From assembly GCA_964106645.2 (NCBI GenBank), contig OZ067046.1: DNA of 64,000 bases; one strand, 5' to 3'. Below the pieces are notes generated by a model. It was not told the DNA's origin. It searched no databases and was given only the letters and a program-made list of their open reading frames with translations. The DNA comes from Podarcis pityusensis. Its lineage: Eukaryota. A program made the translations under genes and the position numbers. Each line of letters begins with the position of its first letter. The stretch's first letter is position 1. Below, in pieces: positions 10,830 through 29,700 of the stretch.

Positions 10830-12450
10830 CTTGGGTCCTCGGCGGAGCTGTGGTGTTTGCTTTTGTTTCTTTGTTTTTAAAGTAACAACACTGGGCAACA
10901 TATACGCAGTTCACAGAGCTTCTGACTGCTGCAAACATGCTACTTGCAGAAGAGCAGGAGTTTACTCAGGAGGAGGCCGGAATGACTTGCAAAGGGACTT
11001 GCGCCCATGCTGCTTCCACACTGCCGGTTAACGGGGAGCTTTTACGTGGCCCCTTCAGTAAAATAAGGTGACGGAAGCCCCCAAGTCCCCATCCCTCAGC
11101 GCCGTCTCCGAAGCAGCAACGACGTAAGAAGCTTCCACTTTGGGAGGAGGCAGAGGACCCTCCTCCAATCCCGCCCATAGTCCCAAATCCTCCCTCGCTG
11201 CTCCCCTCCTACAAGGTAATCTGAGGTCACGGAAGCACAGCGAGAACGCCTTGTCCTCTTCCGACGCATGCGCAACACATCCCTTTCCTCTCCCCCCCCG
11301 CCACCGCCCGAAGGTTTCCGTGGCGCATGCGCAGCGAAGCCGCGGCCCGCTCCCTGACGAAGAAGGGGAATCACCGTCGACTCCCCATCTATGCGCGCGG
11401 TAGTAATGCGCATGCTTAGTACTGACCAGGGAAGCACAGGGGGCCTGGGCCGGCTCAGGCTCTTGCGAGCCGATATACCGCTGCAGCTTGCTTGGTATCC
11501 CTTACCACCGGCGCACGCGCAGTACGGCCAAGGCTCCTCCGGGCTCGGCGGCTGATTCCGCGGCTTGTTTTGCCGGTAAGCGCGAGGGCGGCGCATGCGC
11601 GGTGGCGGAGGGAGACCTTAGGGCCTGGCGGGTTGTGGCTGCTTACTTGAGAAGCGGGGGCGAGCGATCCGTGTCGCGGCGGTGGGCTGAAGAAGAAGAG
11701 GAGCGCGAAGGGAGGCGGCAGGCTGGCGGGGAAGCTCGGTAAGGAGGATACGCCAGCGAGCCGCAGCCGCCGGCCTTGAGGGGGCCTCGCGGAGTCCTGC
11801 TGGCGAGTGGGCTGAGGTAAACTTTGACAGGCGGCGGGCGCGACGGCGGGTTGGGTCGCTGGCGCAGGTCTATGATCTCAGTGTCTCTGCCCCCCCCCCG
11901 TCTTCCGACCCCGCCGACAGTTGAGGGCTTCGCGTGACCCGCTGCCGGGGACGATTCAGGCCCTCAGGGGTTGGCCGGGAATTGGGGGACAGACTGAGGG
12001 GCCGCTGCCTCTATCTTCCTCCCACCCCCACCCCCGAACCCGGGCACCGTGGCGAGGCGGAGACGGGGCAGCTCCGGTGTTTCATAACCGAGGCGGGAGG
12101 GGGCTGTGAGGGGCTTTGGCTGCGCCCATCCCGCTCTCCGGGTTGCGCCCGGCGTCTCCGGTTTATTAAAGCCGCGCCAGGAGCGGCACCGGTTTGGGGT
12201 ATCCCTTATACAACCGGCGCCGTTTTGGTCCTGTCAGAAAGCTGCCCTTCCCCGCCCTGCGAGCCCGGAGCGCGAAGAGGCATTTTCTTTTTTCTCTTTT
12301 CCTCCTACAGCGGCCCTGAACCTTATTTGAATACTGATGATGCAGGCGGGGAGGGGTTTCCTCGCCTCTCTGGAGCCGCTTGCTTAGGAGCGAATCTAGG
12401 GCATTAGATCAAGTTGGAGCGCCCACGTACTTTCGTTTATTTTGCCGAGA
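10830..12450 (+). promoter_or_regulatory. CLOCK: CpG island: CLOCK promoter and first non-coding exon(s)
   Basis: Dense CpG and high GC. NRF1-type motifs at 11265-11274, 11323-11333, 11407-11416, 11511-11521 and 11591-11600, plus CGGAAG ETS motifs. Candidate donors after 11215, 11575, 11738 and 11816. Confidence 0.85.
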
Positions 12451-12946
12451 TCAGGACCCTGCCCCTTTTTTTAGAGCAAAGGGGAGTATGCTGATTTGTC
12501 AAGCCCGCTTCAAAGGTGCCAGCTGGTTTCATTTGGTAGTCAGGAATGCAATCTGACTTTTTGGTGTCGTTGGTTTCTTAGGTCTCTGGCTCAGTTTCCA
12601 CTAGAATGTTATACTTCAGAAAGATCTAATGTAGCAGAAAGTGGAAAGTCAGCACGTAATGATTTCTTAATGCGCTTCTTTTTGTTAAGTAACATGCAAG
12701 CCTAAGCATACCGCTGGTAAATCTTGTTTAACTCTGCAAGATTTCCGAGTAACCATGCTGATGATGGTGCCGATGTATTGTGCACTTGCAGACAAGGTTT
12801 TGTTCTGGTTGGTAGCACTTGTAGCACTCCTTGAGTGAAGGACACCATAAGTGACAGGACAAATTGTTAGATTGTAGCAATGTGCATAACTCCATACATG
12901 GCATTTTATAAGTGATCCTACTTGCTTTCTGTGCGCACATAATGGC

Positions 12947-12977: not shown

Positions 12978-14275
12978 GACTTTTTGAGTGGAGTAGATGT
13001 GCTGGAATAAATAGTTCTCTAGTATCTACTTAGGAAGAATAGATTGCAGCTTAAATAAACCTTCAAGTTGACCATTCAATCAGCTCAAATGGCCTTTGCT
13101 GCACAGTTTCTTGGGTTGGCAACACTTTTTATAGACCATAAATTGCTCACATTGCTGCTTTATAGAAAACAGTGCTTGTGTTTATTATACCTGTGCCCCA
13201 CTTTTGTATCAGAAAGCTCATGTACTTCCCATAAGCCTTCTGTATAGGTACAGATCATGTCTACACACTAGTTTCAGCAATGTTAAACCAGTGTTCCATT
13301 ACCTGCCAAAGGCTGTTTCAGTATCCTATCATTTCAGACAAGAATAGTTTAGCTATCTTCATCAAAAAGAAGGGATTCACACAAATAAAAAAATGCATGG
13401 TCTGTTTCCTCGCCACCATGTTCTTCTGGAATGTTGTTGTTAAACAGAATTGAAACACCAGAATGATGTCTTACTTTGTGGTATGATGCTGAAGTGGCAT
13501 GCCAACTTTGTAACCACTCCCAAATAAATAAATAATAATACAGTAACAGTTATTTATTTATTTCTTTATTTATTTAATGTGTATACCACTCTGTACTTGT
13601 AGATTTCAGGGCGGTTCACAATGTTATGTTACTAGTTAAAAAGTTATAGTTGTACAATCCTTCCTTACTCACACATTAAATCAGACTTGCAATGATAACT
13701 GCAAAATTGCAAATAGACTTAGACTGTTACCTCTAGGTGAGTGGGATAGAGTTGTCCATGCACCTATTTATACAGCTCTGTACTGTATATATACTACAGT
13801 ATATGCGGGTTGCTCATTGACTTTCTTACAGACTTAAAGAGCTATAGAGAAACCTTTAAAATATAGACATATTGTATACAGGACTGCAGTTATCTCTTTT
13901 ACCTTTTCATACTTTGTCTGGAAGGAATACCTTCCTGTTCAGCATTGCCTTCAGTGGAGGAAGCCAGAATGGCTGGTGCCTAGGCTGTGTTGTGATAAGA
14001 AGCACAACCTGCTTTCTCTTCTTCCCTATTTGGTGCATGCCCACATCAGAACTTAATGAAATGATAGTGCAGTGCAGGTTGACAAAGTAGGCAGGAGAAT
14101 TGCAGGCATAGCAGAACCTCAGTGAACACTTGGATCATTTATGCACAAAATGCATTATCACTGGCCTGTGACAGCTTTGTATTTAAATAAAAACTTTATT
14201 CTGGACTGCTGTTAACAGAGGGGTTTTTCTGTTTTTTCTGATTTTTTTAATCAGCTGTCCAAAAAAACACAGGTA

Positions 14276-22800: not shown

Positions 22801-23860
22801 GAAAGAATCATCTGTATTATATGTGTACCTGTTCAAGGAGGGGGTGTTGGGGGGAAGTTTGATATGAGTTTGTGAAAAAGTGAGGAGGAACAGGTTTGCA
22901 ATGGAACCCCAGAAGGTTAGTGAAACATTTTAGTATCATAATACCTTTATTAACTGAATATCACCAAGCAATGAGCTATCTTATAAGTTTCACATAAATC
23001 TTCCCTGAAGTTCAGTAGAGGCGAGGGAGGGAAGAAGAGAGAATGATATTCCTAATAAGAAACATGGCATAAGCCTCTTCTGTAATATATGTATCTGTAA
23101 TGTGACTTTCTTAAGAAAACTCAGAAAGCTGCTGGAAGACTGTTAGTTTGTGCAGTGCAGAATATCTGACTTACATACTTCTACTTTGTCCTATACCAGC
23201 AATATAATTTTCCTCTGCTCACTCTTCTCTGCATAAGTCATATGGTCTCTTTTCTTTAACATCTATTCTATTCATGTTTGCTTTTAATTTCAGAAGTCTT
23301 TCTAAGCGTTTTTTAAACATTCTCTTCCCCCCTCCGTGCCTCCGGTTATAAGCATAGGTCGGGATTCAAAGAACTGTGAAAATAGCTTCATGTGCCCGGA
23401 ATGGTTTTGGATTTGTTTCCCAAACAGCAGCCGTGTCTACCCCTTAAAGCCTAATGGTAAACCACATTTGAAACTGGGAAGAATTAAGGGAGCTTTCTGC
23501 TCAAAATGGGGAGGGAAACTTAAAATTCCCACTAGGTTAGCTCAACCCCTAGAATAGCTGTTTGGGTGTCTGGCATAATAATAAAAAGTCTAGGCATTGT
23601 AAGTGAGAGTGAAACACAGTTTTAAAGACTACCAGTACTGGATGCAGTACTTGCGTCATTTATTATCCCCCACCCCGGACTTGTGTAATGTTTGGCAGAA
23701 TATTCATATTCTCAAAAGTTTAAAAACACAAGCTTCATGTTACAACGTCCGCAGTCTAGATTTCAAAAGACTTCTTTGCGCATTTTAGTGGATACTCTGC
23801 CCAAAAGAAGGGGGGAAAAACTATTCAAATGGGAGATAAGTGTTTAACCACCTTAACAGG

Positions 23861-23896
23861 AAAAGTAGGTCAATAGGACACTAGGCTATTAGGCCA
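23861..23896 (+). promoter_or_regulatory. RORE / RevDR2-type element in a CLOCK 5' intron
   Basis: AAAAGTAGGTCA is a perfect WAWNTRGGTCA match, followed by AT-AGGACA-CT-AGGCTA-TT-AGGCCA. Confidence 0.65.
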
Positions 23897-24923
23897 GAAA
23901 GACACAAGCAGGTTCTCTGAGTCATGCTTCACTTTGCTTTTCCTCCCCACTCCTTCTGGCAGATTGCTTTTCTTTGTATTTAGTTCTTTCTCTTTTTAGT
24001 TACTTTTAAAAACAAGTAATCATTATTGTTTGTGTAGCTCTACTGGCAAGAGGATACATTAATCTTCTAAAAGAAAGTTCCATGTTCTCTCAGTATGATT
24101 TGCTTCTTGGAAATCTAAAAATACCAGTTAGGAGGGAGGGAGTTCTACAACTGAAGAAGCTTTTCCAGAACTCCTTGCAGCTGATAGGGGAAGAGAATGG
24201 AATGGCCAGAACAAGGGCAGTATTTCCTGCTTGGAAATAGACAGTGAGTGGGATGGAGGAGGAGAATTGAATGTAGAGATATTTTCCCCAGTTCCCAAGA
24301 TCTTGGACTGTTTTGCATTTTGAGAGCAGCAAAATGTTGAAACCTCTGGAGTAATGTATTAGTCTGTATGTTTGAGGGATTTTCTTTTGCATCCTGCCCA
24401 TTCTGGAGAACCAATGTGTTAACGTAATGTTGGGGTTTAGAACAGAAGATTCATATGGCATGTCTACATTCTTTCGGGCAACAGGAACAAAATAAGCCTG
24501 TGCTAGCTGGCCTGTGCTGTGCAGATACCAATATTGCGGTTGCGGTCATTGACAGTGTGAAGTTAACTAATATTGGTTAAGCACTGTACCGATTGCATGA
24601 GTACACCAGCAGGCACCCAATAGTTTATTTCTTTATTTAAATATTTATAAACTGCAGTTTCATAGATAATATAAAGCAGCATACAAAATAAAGACAATGC
24701 TACAGTAAGAACAGTTAAATCATGGATAGCATATCAGCAAGAACTGACTGGTAAAGAAAATCACAATGCAATTATTTATTTGAACACACTTTTTGAAATT
24801 TATTTATTTAAATATTATTAAACTGCACTTTCATAGAAAGTATAACATATATAATATTAATGATACATTACAATATTAAAAAACTGCATGCTGAATTTGT
24901 GCTGCTGCAGACATAGTCTAACA

Positions 24924-25059
24924 CAGGCTTCCTCAAACTCGGCCCTCCAGATGTTTTGAGACTACAGTTCCCATCATCCCTGACCACTGGTCCTGCTAGC
25001 TAGGGATCATGGGAGTTGTGGGCCAAAAACATCTGGAGGGCCGAGTTTGAGGAAGCCTA
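24924..25059. mobile_element. hAT-type MITE
   Basis: Inverted termini CAGGCTTCCTCAAACTCGGCCCTCCAGATG / CATCTGGAGGGCCGAGTTTGAGGAAGCCT; right TSD eroded. Confidence 0.8.
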
Positions 25060-25782: not shown

Positions 25783-25904
25783 TACTGAATTAAGATATTA
25801 ATGATCTTCTGCGGAGAATACATTTTGAAGGCTCTTCCCAAGTTGCTCCTTCTGGAACCTGTCATTTAGAACATTGCCATTTATCATCCAGAAAAGTATA
25901 AACG
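25783..25904 (+). other. CLOCK: Candidate CLOCK 5'UTR exon (contains uORF 25801-25869)
   Basis: Long polypyrimidine tract + ttaacag|; donor ACG|gtaaaa; about 350 nt upstream of the first coding exon. Confidence 0.55.
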
Positions 25905-26305
25905 GTAAAAGCCCACTGGATTATATTCAGATAATTAGGGCACAGAACCAAAAAGCACAGGCATATATATTGGTAGCAATCCAAAGAACTATGTCCTCAT
26001 TTTAAGGGCTTTGACATTGCCAGACAACATGGCAATTTGCTTTTGACAGTGCTCTCAGTTTCAAATACGGTTTGCCATGTGGAGTTGGGGCAGGGAGCTG
26101 ATGTTCAAGAGACACAATCCCAAAGCTTTTTGGGCACGTGGAACTAGTTGCATGGTTCTTTGGATTCTGCCTATTGTTCCTTTTGGCGCCAGTAGGGAAT
26201 TTTATTCAGGAAAAATAAGAGAGTGACGTTGCATTTCTTTCTTTTTCTATTCTCCTACAGTGCAGACGTACAAATGTCTACCACAAGACTAAAGTGTGAT
26301 ATGTT

Positions 26306-26352
26306 ATGTTCTTTACCATAAGCACCCATAAAATGAGCTCCATTGCAGACAG
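26306..26352 (+). CDS. CLOCK: CLOCK coding exon 1 (exon starts at 26261)
   Basis: tcctacag| at 26260; [16 protein letters not shown]; |gtatgc. Confidence 0.92.
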
Positions 26353-26795: not shown

Positions 26796-29700
26796 AGAGC
26801 ACCTACCTGTATGTTCCTGACTGTGTGGCTGCCTGCTTGTCTGGATGTATGCAGTATGTGTGTGCATGCATGTAAATGTACATTGATCTCAGCCTCTGTT
26901 GGCTTGCAGCCCTTGGAGTGGTGGTTATGAGTGTGATCCTTAGACCAAAAAGGTTATCTACCCCTCCATTAGAACATAACAGACTTCATTAGCTGTTTGC
27001 TATGAATGACTTGATTTAATGGTAATGCGGAATTGCAAAGATCCAATGAGGGTGTTTCAATATTTCTTCCTAAATTGTATCTGTGGGTACGGTAGAAAAG
27101 GTAATGTTCACAAAATTTATTTTACTTCACATCGAAACCAATCTTATAAATACCAATTTTTTTAAGATTGATATAATTAGTAATGTTGCAGACTGAAAAT
27201 ACTTATCAATATAAGGCTGTTCTTAACATTGTGGCTGCCCTCTGAGACTTGTTTTTTTCTTGTAGAGATGATGGTAGCATTTTTGATGGTCTCGTGGAAG
27301 AAGATGACAAGGATAAAGCGAAGAGGTATGTTTTTTGAGGTAGCTAGCACCTTCCATTTTTCCTCTGGTTAGGATGTATATAAACTGTGCATTGAAATGG
27401 GACTTTACATAAAGGGCTGTTTGCACACAATGCTAAACCATGGTTCAGTGTTATAAAGATGAGCCTCCCCAAGCCTAGGTAAAGCCAACTTCAAACCATG
27501 GGATTTTCCCTTGTTGTGAGCCAGGAGACCTGATTTGCATAGAATGCAAAGATTCTTTGAAACTCAATGTAAAATTCTCCTGGCTGCACAGGAGAGAGTA
27601 TTGCAGAGTGAATTGAAGAGCATGTGAGACTAATGCTTTGTTTGGACTTGCTGAGGCTTGACTAAGTAAATAGTTTAGAACAGGGAAAGAGAACCTGTGA
27701 CCTTCCAGCTGTTATTGAACTTAATCTCTCATCAGCCTCAGCCAGCATTGCTCATGATGACTGGTGATGAGAACTGTAGTTCAATGACATCTGGAGGGCC
27801 ACTTCTGGTTTTGTATTACATCTGGACCAGCGCATAGATTGCACAGATTATATCAGGAAGCCTGTGAAAAGCCCTATATCCAGTGGCCTAAAGTATGCAC
27901 AATGCCCTTAGTCCTTGCATACATTGCCAGGCATGTGGTCAGCTGTCTTATCTGACAATGGGGAAGGGGGAAGAGAAGGGAGGACGGATTCAAAGCATCT
28001 CTTTTCTCCCCACCCACCCTCTTAACAAGTGACCAAGTGGATTAATTAAAGTTTGTTCAAGGGAAGATACCAACACATAGTCCCTTGCTGAGTGCAAGGA
28101 TCACTGCATGGGGATCTTGGTTTTTTTGGCTTGGAGACAGTATTAAAATATTGCAATAAAATATTAACATATTTATGTACTGCAAAGATATAAGACTCTT
28201 CAAGTTTCAATTTTTAGTTTTTCTTTTAATTTTATCAGGCATCCAAATAAGTCCAAGTGTCTTGACTGGCAACTGACCTCTTGAAAAGCTACTGTAATAT
28301 GCTTAAGACAAAAGCCTAGATTCAAACAGCAGTAAAACTTGTTTCACAGGCTAAGGGCTTGGGGCTTCCCCCCCCTTTTTTTCTTTTAGCAATAACCTAT
28401 CAAAGCCGCATAACTATTGAAAGTGGAGGAAGAGTAGTGGAGATTAAAAAAATTCCACTGGGCATGCTCAAGCACTTGTTTTTACCAAAAGTAGTTATTT
28501 GGATTCCACCCAAAAGATGTTTAAAGATAATTTAAACACATCGCTAATGTTTCCATGTATAGGGCTCCAAAATGGAATACTAATGTTGCAGTCCTAACCC
28601 TGCTTACTTGAGAGTAAGTTCATTGAATTTAACAGAACTTCTGAGTTGGCATGATTAGAATTGTGCTAAAAGTATTTCTATGGCTAGTTTTGCCAAATGT
28701 TTCCTCCTCCTCACATTTGAAATGAGCATATTTTATTGACCATTGTAACTTACAATACATTCTGTTGTATCCACTGCTTCCAGGGCTTCCATTCCCTCTT
28801 CTTTCCATTCATGCCCCCAACCCTCCAGCTGTTCAGGAGCTGGAGGGGATGGGAGAGGAAAGGGAAATTCTGTTATGCAAATGGAAGCCCCTTTTGCTGA
28901 CAGAACTGTAGCATTGGACACAGCCTCCTAACCCCTAAGAAATTGCATAAAACTTCCCCCCTGGAATTTTCATAATTGTGTGTGTCTGCTTTTTTTTAAG
29001 GGTGTCAAGAAACAAGTCTGAAAAGAAACGCAGAGATCAGTTTAATGTACTCATCAAAGAACTGGGATCCATGCTTCCGGGCAATGCTCGGAAGATGGAC
29101 AAATCTACTGTACTGCAGAAGAGCATTGATTTCTTACAGAAGCACAAAGGTAATTTGGGAATGTCACAAGAAATTTGTGAAACAAATTTTGTTGAATTCT
29201 TGATACTTAAGTATATATGAGTTGGAATGGTCCATAAATCACAGGTAGTTTTAGTCTGTCTACCTGGTGGTGTTATATTTGCTGGGACAGGGTGGTGGCA
29301 AGGTTGAAGGGAGCCCTGGATTGGTGGTGCCAACAACCCGGTAAGGGTGTGTGTGCACATGTGAGCCACTGCCAACCCAGAACTCTCCTAGCTTTCCCCT
29401 GACCTATCTCTGTCCTGTTGAATGCAGCACTGTGACTAGTAGTGTGCTGCTGTCTGCTCTCCCCATCATGCAGTTCTGGTGATAAGTAAATGCTTCTTTT
29501 CTCAACCTTTTTACCTACCTATCTGCATCTTGGTACATTAAGGTAGAATGTTGCAATGAATACAGTTCTCTCACTTGCTCTCTATCTTTTTTGTTTTTGT
29601 AATAGGCATGTTTAATGACTGGGCTGGTGCGGTTAATGAATGATAGTTTCCAATGGGATGGGGAAAATAACCTGTGGCGCTATTCCCTCCCCCCTTTTGT

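Follow-up and report, generated by a model that had tools for sequence, protein, structure and literature searches.

REV-ERB dimers bind RevDR2 elements 5-10 times more stably and recruit NCoR-HDAC3, whereas monomers on one RORE do not, according to the accessible part of the source (PMC10712084). The available text of a second source states that these dimers prefer A(C/G)T before both half-sites, which is a preference and not an absolute rule, and that RAR/RXR also binds DR2 (PMC7406977). Within the portions available of three further papers, RORE and RevDR2 are enriched at in vivo sites (PMC7568238, PMC6105032, PMC10345098), and RXR is tabulated on four consecutive half-sites in what is accessible of another (PMC3167614).

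Human CLOCK carries a REV-ERB-bound element in intron 1 that was tested as a single RORE (PMC3066191), and the mouse Clock site lies within +511/+827 and has low ROR occupancy (PMC3458568). As far as the accessible text of both sources goes, this bears out the original prediction in taking mammalian CLOCK to be a REV-ERB/ROR target. Mouse Npas2 has two separate monomer sites, RORE1 and RORE2, which lie 21 bp apart in the proximal promoter (PMC3113563). Our literature search, for which subscription papers were mostly beyond reach, returned no described element of lizard Clock and nothing relevant on REV-ERB arrays or trimers; nor did it return binding, chromatin or rhythm data for any lizard.

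We analyzed a 64,000-nucleotide stretch of the 1.5-Gb genome of Podarcis pityusensis (G000:C9:22816001-22880000, hereafter the window), which contains CLOCK on the plus strand. The bHLH exon is identical to PDB CLOCK at 47 of 49 residues and, with the N-terminus, identifies the gene. The element under study lies 12 kb downstream of a CpG island, with a non-coding exon following at a distance of 1.9 kb and the ATG at 2.4 kb. Since the CpG island with a putative exon 1 is upstream, and the non-coding exon spliced to the ATG exon is downstream, the element is located in a 5'-UTR intron, which agrees with the CLOCK intron proposed before. None of the listed sequencing runs is recorded as RNA, and the RNA status of the runs used as such (X15 and F) is a guess. 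The upstream neighbour is presumably a phosducin-like gene, and the downstream neighbour, on the minus strand, is one we take to be TMEM165-like. A six-codon upstream ORF (26301-26321) starts 5 bases before the CLOCK ATG, overlaps it and is out of frame.

Features of the CLOCK window, with positions counted from its first letter
Feature	Position	Strand	Basis or remark
CpG island (presumed promoter of CLOCK, with non-coding exon 1 and a putative donor after 11738)	11001..12500	+	Sequence, not RNA
Another RevDR2-like site, with 2 mismatches, some 0.65 kb inside intron 1	12393..12411	+	Position of the mouse Clock RORE
12/13 match to the mammalian CLOCK RevRE probe core, half-site GGGGCA	13192..13204	-	2/760,000 background positions
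Perfect RORE (A/T-rich extension WAWNT plus AGGTCA), half-site 1	23862..23872	+	Sole perfect WAWNTRGGTCA in the window
RevDR2, half-sites 1 and 2, spacer AT, one mismatch in 17 scored positions	23862..23880	+	Best site of the window; likely functional core
Units 3 and 4 (CT-AGGCTA, TT-AGGCCA)	23881..23896	+	2 and 1 mismatches; both in phase and with the spacer T
Unit 5 (GA-AAGACA)	23897..23904	+	Chance-level; altered at 23903 in organism D
AP-1-type site TGAGTCA, 14 bp behind the array	23918..23924		0.13 such sites expected in 640 bp, with 11 motifs screened
Non-coding exon of CLOCK, joined by splicing to the exon with the ATG	25783..25904	+	Joint in RNA contigs of a related organism; splice sites
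First coding exon of CLOCK, ATG at 26306	26261..26352	+	Contigs, splice sites, N-terminus
CLOCK bHLH exon, translated part	29002..29148	+	Comparison with PDB CLOCK

The 44 bases at 23861-23904 read AAAAGT-AGGTCA-AT-AGGACA-CT-AGGCTA-TT-AGGCCA-GA-AAGACA, exactly the letters and the position given originally. The half-sites start at 23867, 23875, 23883, 23891 and 23899 and have 0, 1, 2, 1 and 2 mismatches to RGGTCA, while the phases flanking the array have 3-4. T-AGG-n-n-A recurs in units 1-4 with a period of exactly 8 bp, so that the description of a perfect RORE followed by three more TAGGnnA units holds on the letters; unit 5 lacks the spacer T. A-N-T precedes all four of these half-sites. The preferred A(C/G)T has its C/G middle base only before units 1 and 3, and A-A-T precedes unit 2. 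The T at half-site position 4 is absent from units 2-5, and unit 3 has two core mismatches.

As far as the accessible sources describe RevDR2 (PMC10712084, PMC7406977), the element shares with it the A/T-rich extension, AGGTCA, a 2-bp spacer ending in T and a second half-site in direct repeat; it differs in that this second half-site is AGGACA, the spacer is AT instead of (C/G)T, and two more degenerate units follow in phase. It resembles the Npas2 pair (PMC3113563) in that a CLOCK-family gene has several ROR/REV-ERB sites, but those are separate monomer sites of a proximal promoter whereas the CLOCK element is a DR2 array. With the four-half-site binding of RXR, in the accessible part of PMC3167614, it has in common an in-phase run of half-sites that could hold more than a dimer; the receptor and the spacing are different there, and the CLOCK units are degenerate.

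To judge how rare the element is, we used as background 38 stretches of 10 kb (380 kb; 760,000 positions), leaving out two stretches that had been chosen for their arrays. The RORE by itself is ordinary: the background holds 6 perfect ROREs, or 1.0 per 64 kb, precisely the chance rate that had been assumed, and the window holds a single one, also as claimed, together with 29 one-mismatch ROREs against 42 expected. What stands out is the phased array, as had been proposed. Only 20 of 760,000 background positions have three following hexamers with at most 4 mismatches, and among 211 perfect half-sites (6 spacings, 2 directions) the element ranks first with 4 mismatches, the next having 6. Units 3-4, scored with the spacer T at no more than 3 mismatches in 14, are equalled at 88 of 760,000 positions (about 1e-4), and unit 5 has a P of 0.10. 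A RevDR2 (WAWNT-RGGTCA-NT-RGGTCA) with at most one mismatch is expected 0.006 times per 64 kb. At two mismatches or fewer, the background contains 0 sites (0.75 expected) and the CLOCK window two, at 23862 and 12393 (P 0.007). These figures overstate the surprise, because the patterns were shaped after the site had been seen and the window was picked from many. Still, the dimer core and units 3-4 both need an explanation other than random sequence, while unit 5 is probably not part of the element.

Compared with the intron-1 RevRE/RORE of human and mouse CLOCK, the element has the same gene, a 5' intron and a perfect RORE with the AAAGT extension in common, and no likeness of the flanks is shown. 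The mammalian site is described as a single RORE, at +511/+827 in mouse (PMC3458568, accessible text), whereas the lizard element is a dimer-type site 12 kb from the CpG island; an orthologue of the mammalian RevRE would be expected within about 1 kb of the start site. In position it does not correspond to the mammalian site, and it is also outside the 8 best matches of the window to the mammalian CLOCK RevRE probe. From their positions, the sites at 12393-12411 and 13192-13204 are better candidates for counterparts of the mammalian site, and the latter is possibly its decayed orthologue. In both of them the half-site is changed to RGGGCA, which suggests weakening or turnover of the proximal CLOCK site.

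Around the element, CpG, E-box, D-box, HNF, HSE and NF-Y motifs are at background level only, with the exception of the one AP-1-type site, which is a weak hint of an enhancer. In run X15, guessed to be RNA, three contigs with a depth of 2.6-3.9, compared with 55-60 on exons, together cover 23301-24024, and no others flank them; they begin just behind a strong 3' splice-site-like sequence that ends near 23293. They are possibly a minor exon, enhancer RNA or pre-mRNA. We do not count them as enhancer RNA or an alternative exon because they come from one run, have no strand and could be DNA or pre-mRNA; among 15 of the 32 splice joints, those listed, none is near the element. The same intron contains a very high-copy short repeat with inverted ends at 24924-25058, which is MITE- or SINE-like.

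Close relatives were compared through contigs of three DNA runs (organisms C, D and E) and one guessed RNA run (F), all 1-3% diverged, with 13 of 16, 7 of 17, 12 of 30 and 4 of 7 differences located for D, C, E and F, respectively. Among the 40 of 96 substitutions listed, the only one in 23861-23904 is at 23903, in unit 5 of organism D, and the 12 of 14 indels listed for these four relatives include none in this interval. At such divergence only 2-3 changes are expected in 36 bp. Among the changes listed, the slot of the element thus appears at least stable in length in close relatives. Depth over 23150-24600 is flat in the relatives.

A second element of this kind is found at a paralogue. A perfect RevDR2 at C4:75749606 has 22 of 24 letters in common with the CLOCK element and lies 29 kb upstream of the CpG island of a gene which we take to be NPAS2, without a third half-site. 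We use this name on the basis of four features: the bHLH exon is 85% identical to that of CLOCK, the start exon reads MDEDEKDRAKR, a paralogue of the phosducin-like gene of the window sits 70 kb upstream, and directly before the CpG island there are two AGGTCA 30 bp apart that resemble the mouse RORE1/2 pair. ESM Atlas returned no name for the C4 paralogue. The locus (G000:C4:75735001-75805000; L038-L044) holds, within its 70 kb, 8 perfect ROREs where chance predicts 1.1, with a P of 2e-5 to 1.4e-4 for a region that was selected because of one of those ROREs, as well as 3 RevDR2-like sites that deviate at no more than 2 positions; it is a stronger case of RORE clustering than the CLOCK element itself. 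Given the position of the twin 29 kb upstream of the CpG island and its lack of a third half-site, convergence on an optimal site is likelier than descent for the CLOCK/NPAS2 pair. A further RORE, 1.4 kb before the NPAS2 ATG exon (G000:C4:75795402, minus strand), shares the upstream letters ACAGGAAAA with the CLOCK element in opposite orientation, which may be chance. A third CLOCK-family gene (G000:C20:41611695-41611844, minus strand), whose bHLH is 79% identical and has a short insertion, has 2 ROREs and 0 RevDR2 sites with at most 2 mismatches in 60 kb.

Genome-wide, the pattern WAWNTRGGTCANTRGGNCA has 53 matches in 1.5 Gb, 32 of them in one 4-kb cluster and 21 dispersed, against 11 for the control and a Markov expectation of 16.6; WAWNTRGGTCANNRGGWCA has 31 matches and its control 34. 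The strict WAWNTRGGTCANTRGGNCA loci number 22, of which one is the CLOCK element and another lies beside NPAS2. Six other strict sites that we examined have no clock gene within 5 kb; beside them we recognised a Copia-type gag-pol, a vomeronasal-type receptor gene, a Kelch gene or no feature at all. There are no zf-C4 or cryptochrome matches within 100 kb of any of the 22 loci, and Pfam recognised no clock gene in 144 of 411 frames, namely the 18 longest open ones from every one of 8 loci. Because the class is not clearly enriched over the control and the six other sites have no clock gene, most RevDR2-like matches are probably chance. A RORE followed by two looser units is found at 9 places, 5 of which are accounted for by one repeated string. 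Individual places of interest are a tandem cluster with a period of about 60 bp near a contig end (G000:C20:226458-230459; 32 RevDR2-like sites), a RevDR2-like site inside a Kelch-repeat gene with a second perfect RORE 19 bp later (L057; G000:C12:4251231-4251260), and a three-unit DR2 run near a glycosyltransferase exon with two perfect GGGTCA and without the A/T-rich extension (L003; G000:C9:31192384).

We then considered how the array may have arisen. Runs of four TAGGNNA units at period 8 were found 20 times, spread over 13 loci, and 0 times in the control. At the other 12 loci the array is a near-exact (ATAGGGCA)n repeat, and thus 8-mer slippage does happen in this genome; the CLOCK array is the only degenerate, RORE-anchored one. 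Nine loci were compared, and all belong to one 1.07-kb LTR-like family (L022:4370-5441 and relatives, L026-L037) that carries a variable-length (ATAGGGCA)n array of DR2-spaced half-site variants. Its copies are 86-94% alike, and several pairs are about 9 kb apart, as expected of LTRs. Tandem Repeats Finder at a score of 30 does not list the CLOCK array. Equal period-8 self-identity is found at 10 loci, among which the element is the sole one that is not low-complexity; like thresholds yield 3 loci of this sort for period 5 and 1 for period 6. The 6 changes seen across units 1-4 are concentrated in 3 of the 8 columns (P 0.05): the first base of the spacer, where any letter is allowed, and positions 4 and 5 of the half-site. 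Such clustering would fit mild constraint on all of units 1-4, but the test is circular, as the array was noticed for its invariant columns.

Together, we propose that half-sites 1-2 may act as a working distal RevDR2 of CLOCK and that units 3-4 are relics of an 8-bp duplication that add little binding, a reading to which we give an even chance. A REV-ERB/ROR role for the core, taken by itself, is probable, if well short of certain. An 8-bp tandem duplication would have made the site and left units 3-4 over. A REV-ERB dimer would bind head-to-tail on half-sites 1-2 and, from known biology, recruit NCoR-HDAC3 when REV-ERB peaks, while activation in the opposite phase would come from a ROR monomer on half-site 1. 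As a putative enhancer, and together with the weaker site near the promoter at 12393, the element could give CLOCK mRNA a rhythm in anti-REV-ERB phase. Several observations count against this proposal: RevDR2-like matches are no more frequent in the genome than control patterns, the six other strict sites examined lack a clock gene within 5 kb, the window was chosen out of many, there is no CpG enrichment around the element, the spacer is AT and not the preferred (C/G)T, the position is unlike that of the mammalian site and unlike that of the NPAS2 twin, which is upstream of the promoter, and the three-column clustering shows slightly more order than would be expected if units 3-4 had decayed neutrally.

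Alternatively, the array could be a neutral, decayed 8-bp microsatellite whose first unit is a RORE by accident, with CLOCK regulated through promoter-proximal sites only. One RORE per 64 kb is indeed background, slippage accounts for the phasing without selection, proximal candidates exist at 12393 and 13192-13204, and relatives only 1-3% diverged do not show conservation. However, this needs a site class found once in 70 Mb to have landed in a known REV-ERB target and also beside its paralogue, and the changes cluster by column; we consider it unlikely.

Another possibility is that all four units work, with REV-ERB bound either as two dimers or as a head-to-tail chain of its DNA-binding domains at the 8-bp period, so that cooperative binding would give stronger or switch-like repression of CLOCK. 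The CRBPII element consists of DR1 repeats with near-perfect half-sites, and half-site position 4 is the most tolerant position. The columns that vary in the CLOCK array are the free first spacer base and this tolerant position, and the rarity of in-phase units with the spacer T, the A-N-T before every one of the four half-sites and the singular degenerate, RORE-anchored character of the array among the 13 loci would also fit, as would RXR on four consecutive half-sites (PMC3167614, accessible text). Against this, unit 3 has its two core mismatches, T4 is kept by unit 1 alone, the argument from the columns is circular, the twin at NPAS2 lacks a third half-site, and REV-ERB trimers or arrays did not appear in our literature search. 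Full use of all four units is quite doubtful, and a cooperative four-site platform is possible but unsupported. Units 3-4 are likely either duplication relics or weak auxiliary sites. 

Of the original prediction, a ROR/REV-ERB element at half-sites 1-2 is well supported by its rarity, the known target gene and the NPAS2 twin; an amplified platform of four sites that strengthens Clock cycling is not: T4 is gone in units 2-5, unit 3 has two mismatches, unit 5 is at chance level and altered in organism D, and all the other arrays of this kind in the genome are slippage repeats. Since DNA-binding domains placed head-to-tail on DR2 could form a chain, we keep a bolder version as a long shot, in which four DR2 half-sites of graded affinity would load 3-4 REV-ERB head-to-tail, and CLOCK, weakly rhythmic in mammals, would have become high-amplitude and threshold-switched in the lizard lineage through an array that was born by 8-bp slippage and replaced a weakened proximal RORE.

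A DR2 element that serves mainly another receptor, for example RAR/RXR, is very improbable: RAR/RXR binds DR2 (PMC7406977, accessible text) and a tandem DR2 could hold two heterodimers, but the 5' extension is the optimal one for ROR/REV-ERB in the sources as far as accessible, the spacer T is kept, and the host gene is a known REV-ERB target. Descent from a (ATAGGGCA)n array of the LTR-like family, with or without later co-option, is hardly credible and found no support, for although the family is common (285 pattern matches, control 2), its array is 77-80% like that of CLOCK over 31-36 bp (E 0.07) and one copy has two perfect AGGTCA units, nothing else of a family 86-94% alike over 1 kb is left at CLOCK, the 400-bp flanks do not align (their best scores are at background level, reached by 42% and 20% of 150 random windows), 23150-24600, of flat depth in relatives, is single-copy (self-match only in a genome search that skipped very common words), and the 8 differences are confined to 3 columns (P 0.003).

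If only the dimer site works, the element would be a new instance of known regulation. It offers a concrete candidate through which the REV-ERB/ROR loop could act on CLOCK in a reptile, and CLOCK and NPAS2 are each predicted to pair a weak proximal site with a strong distal one of the dimer type. With its in-phase units, the array may also be a natural substrate for asking whether REV-ERB occupies more than two DR2-phased half-sites.
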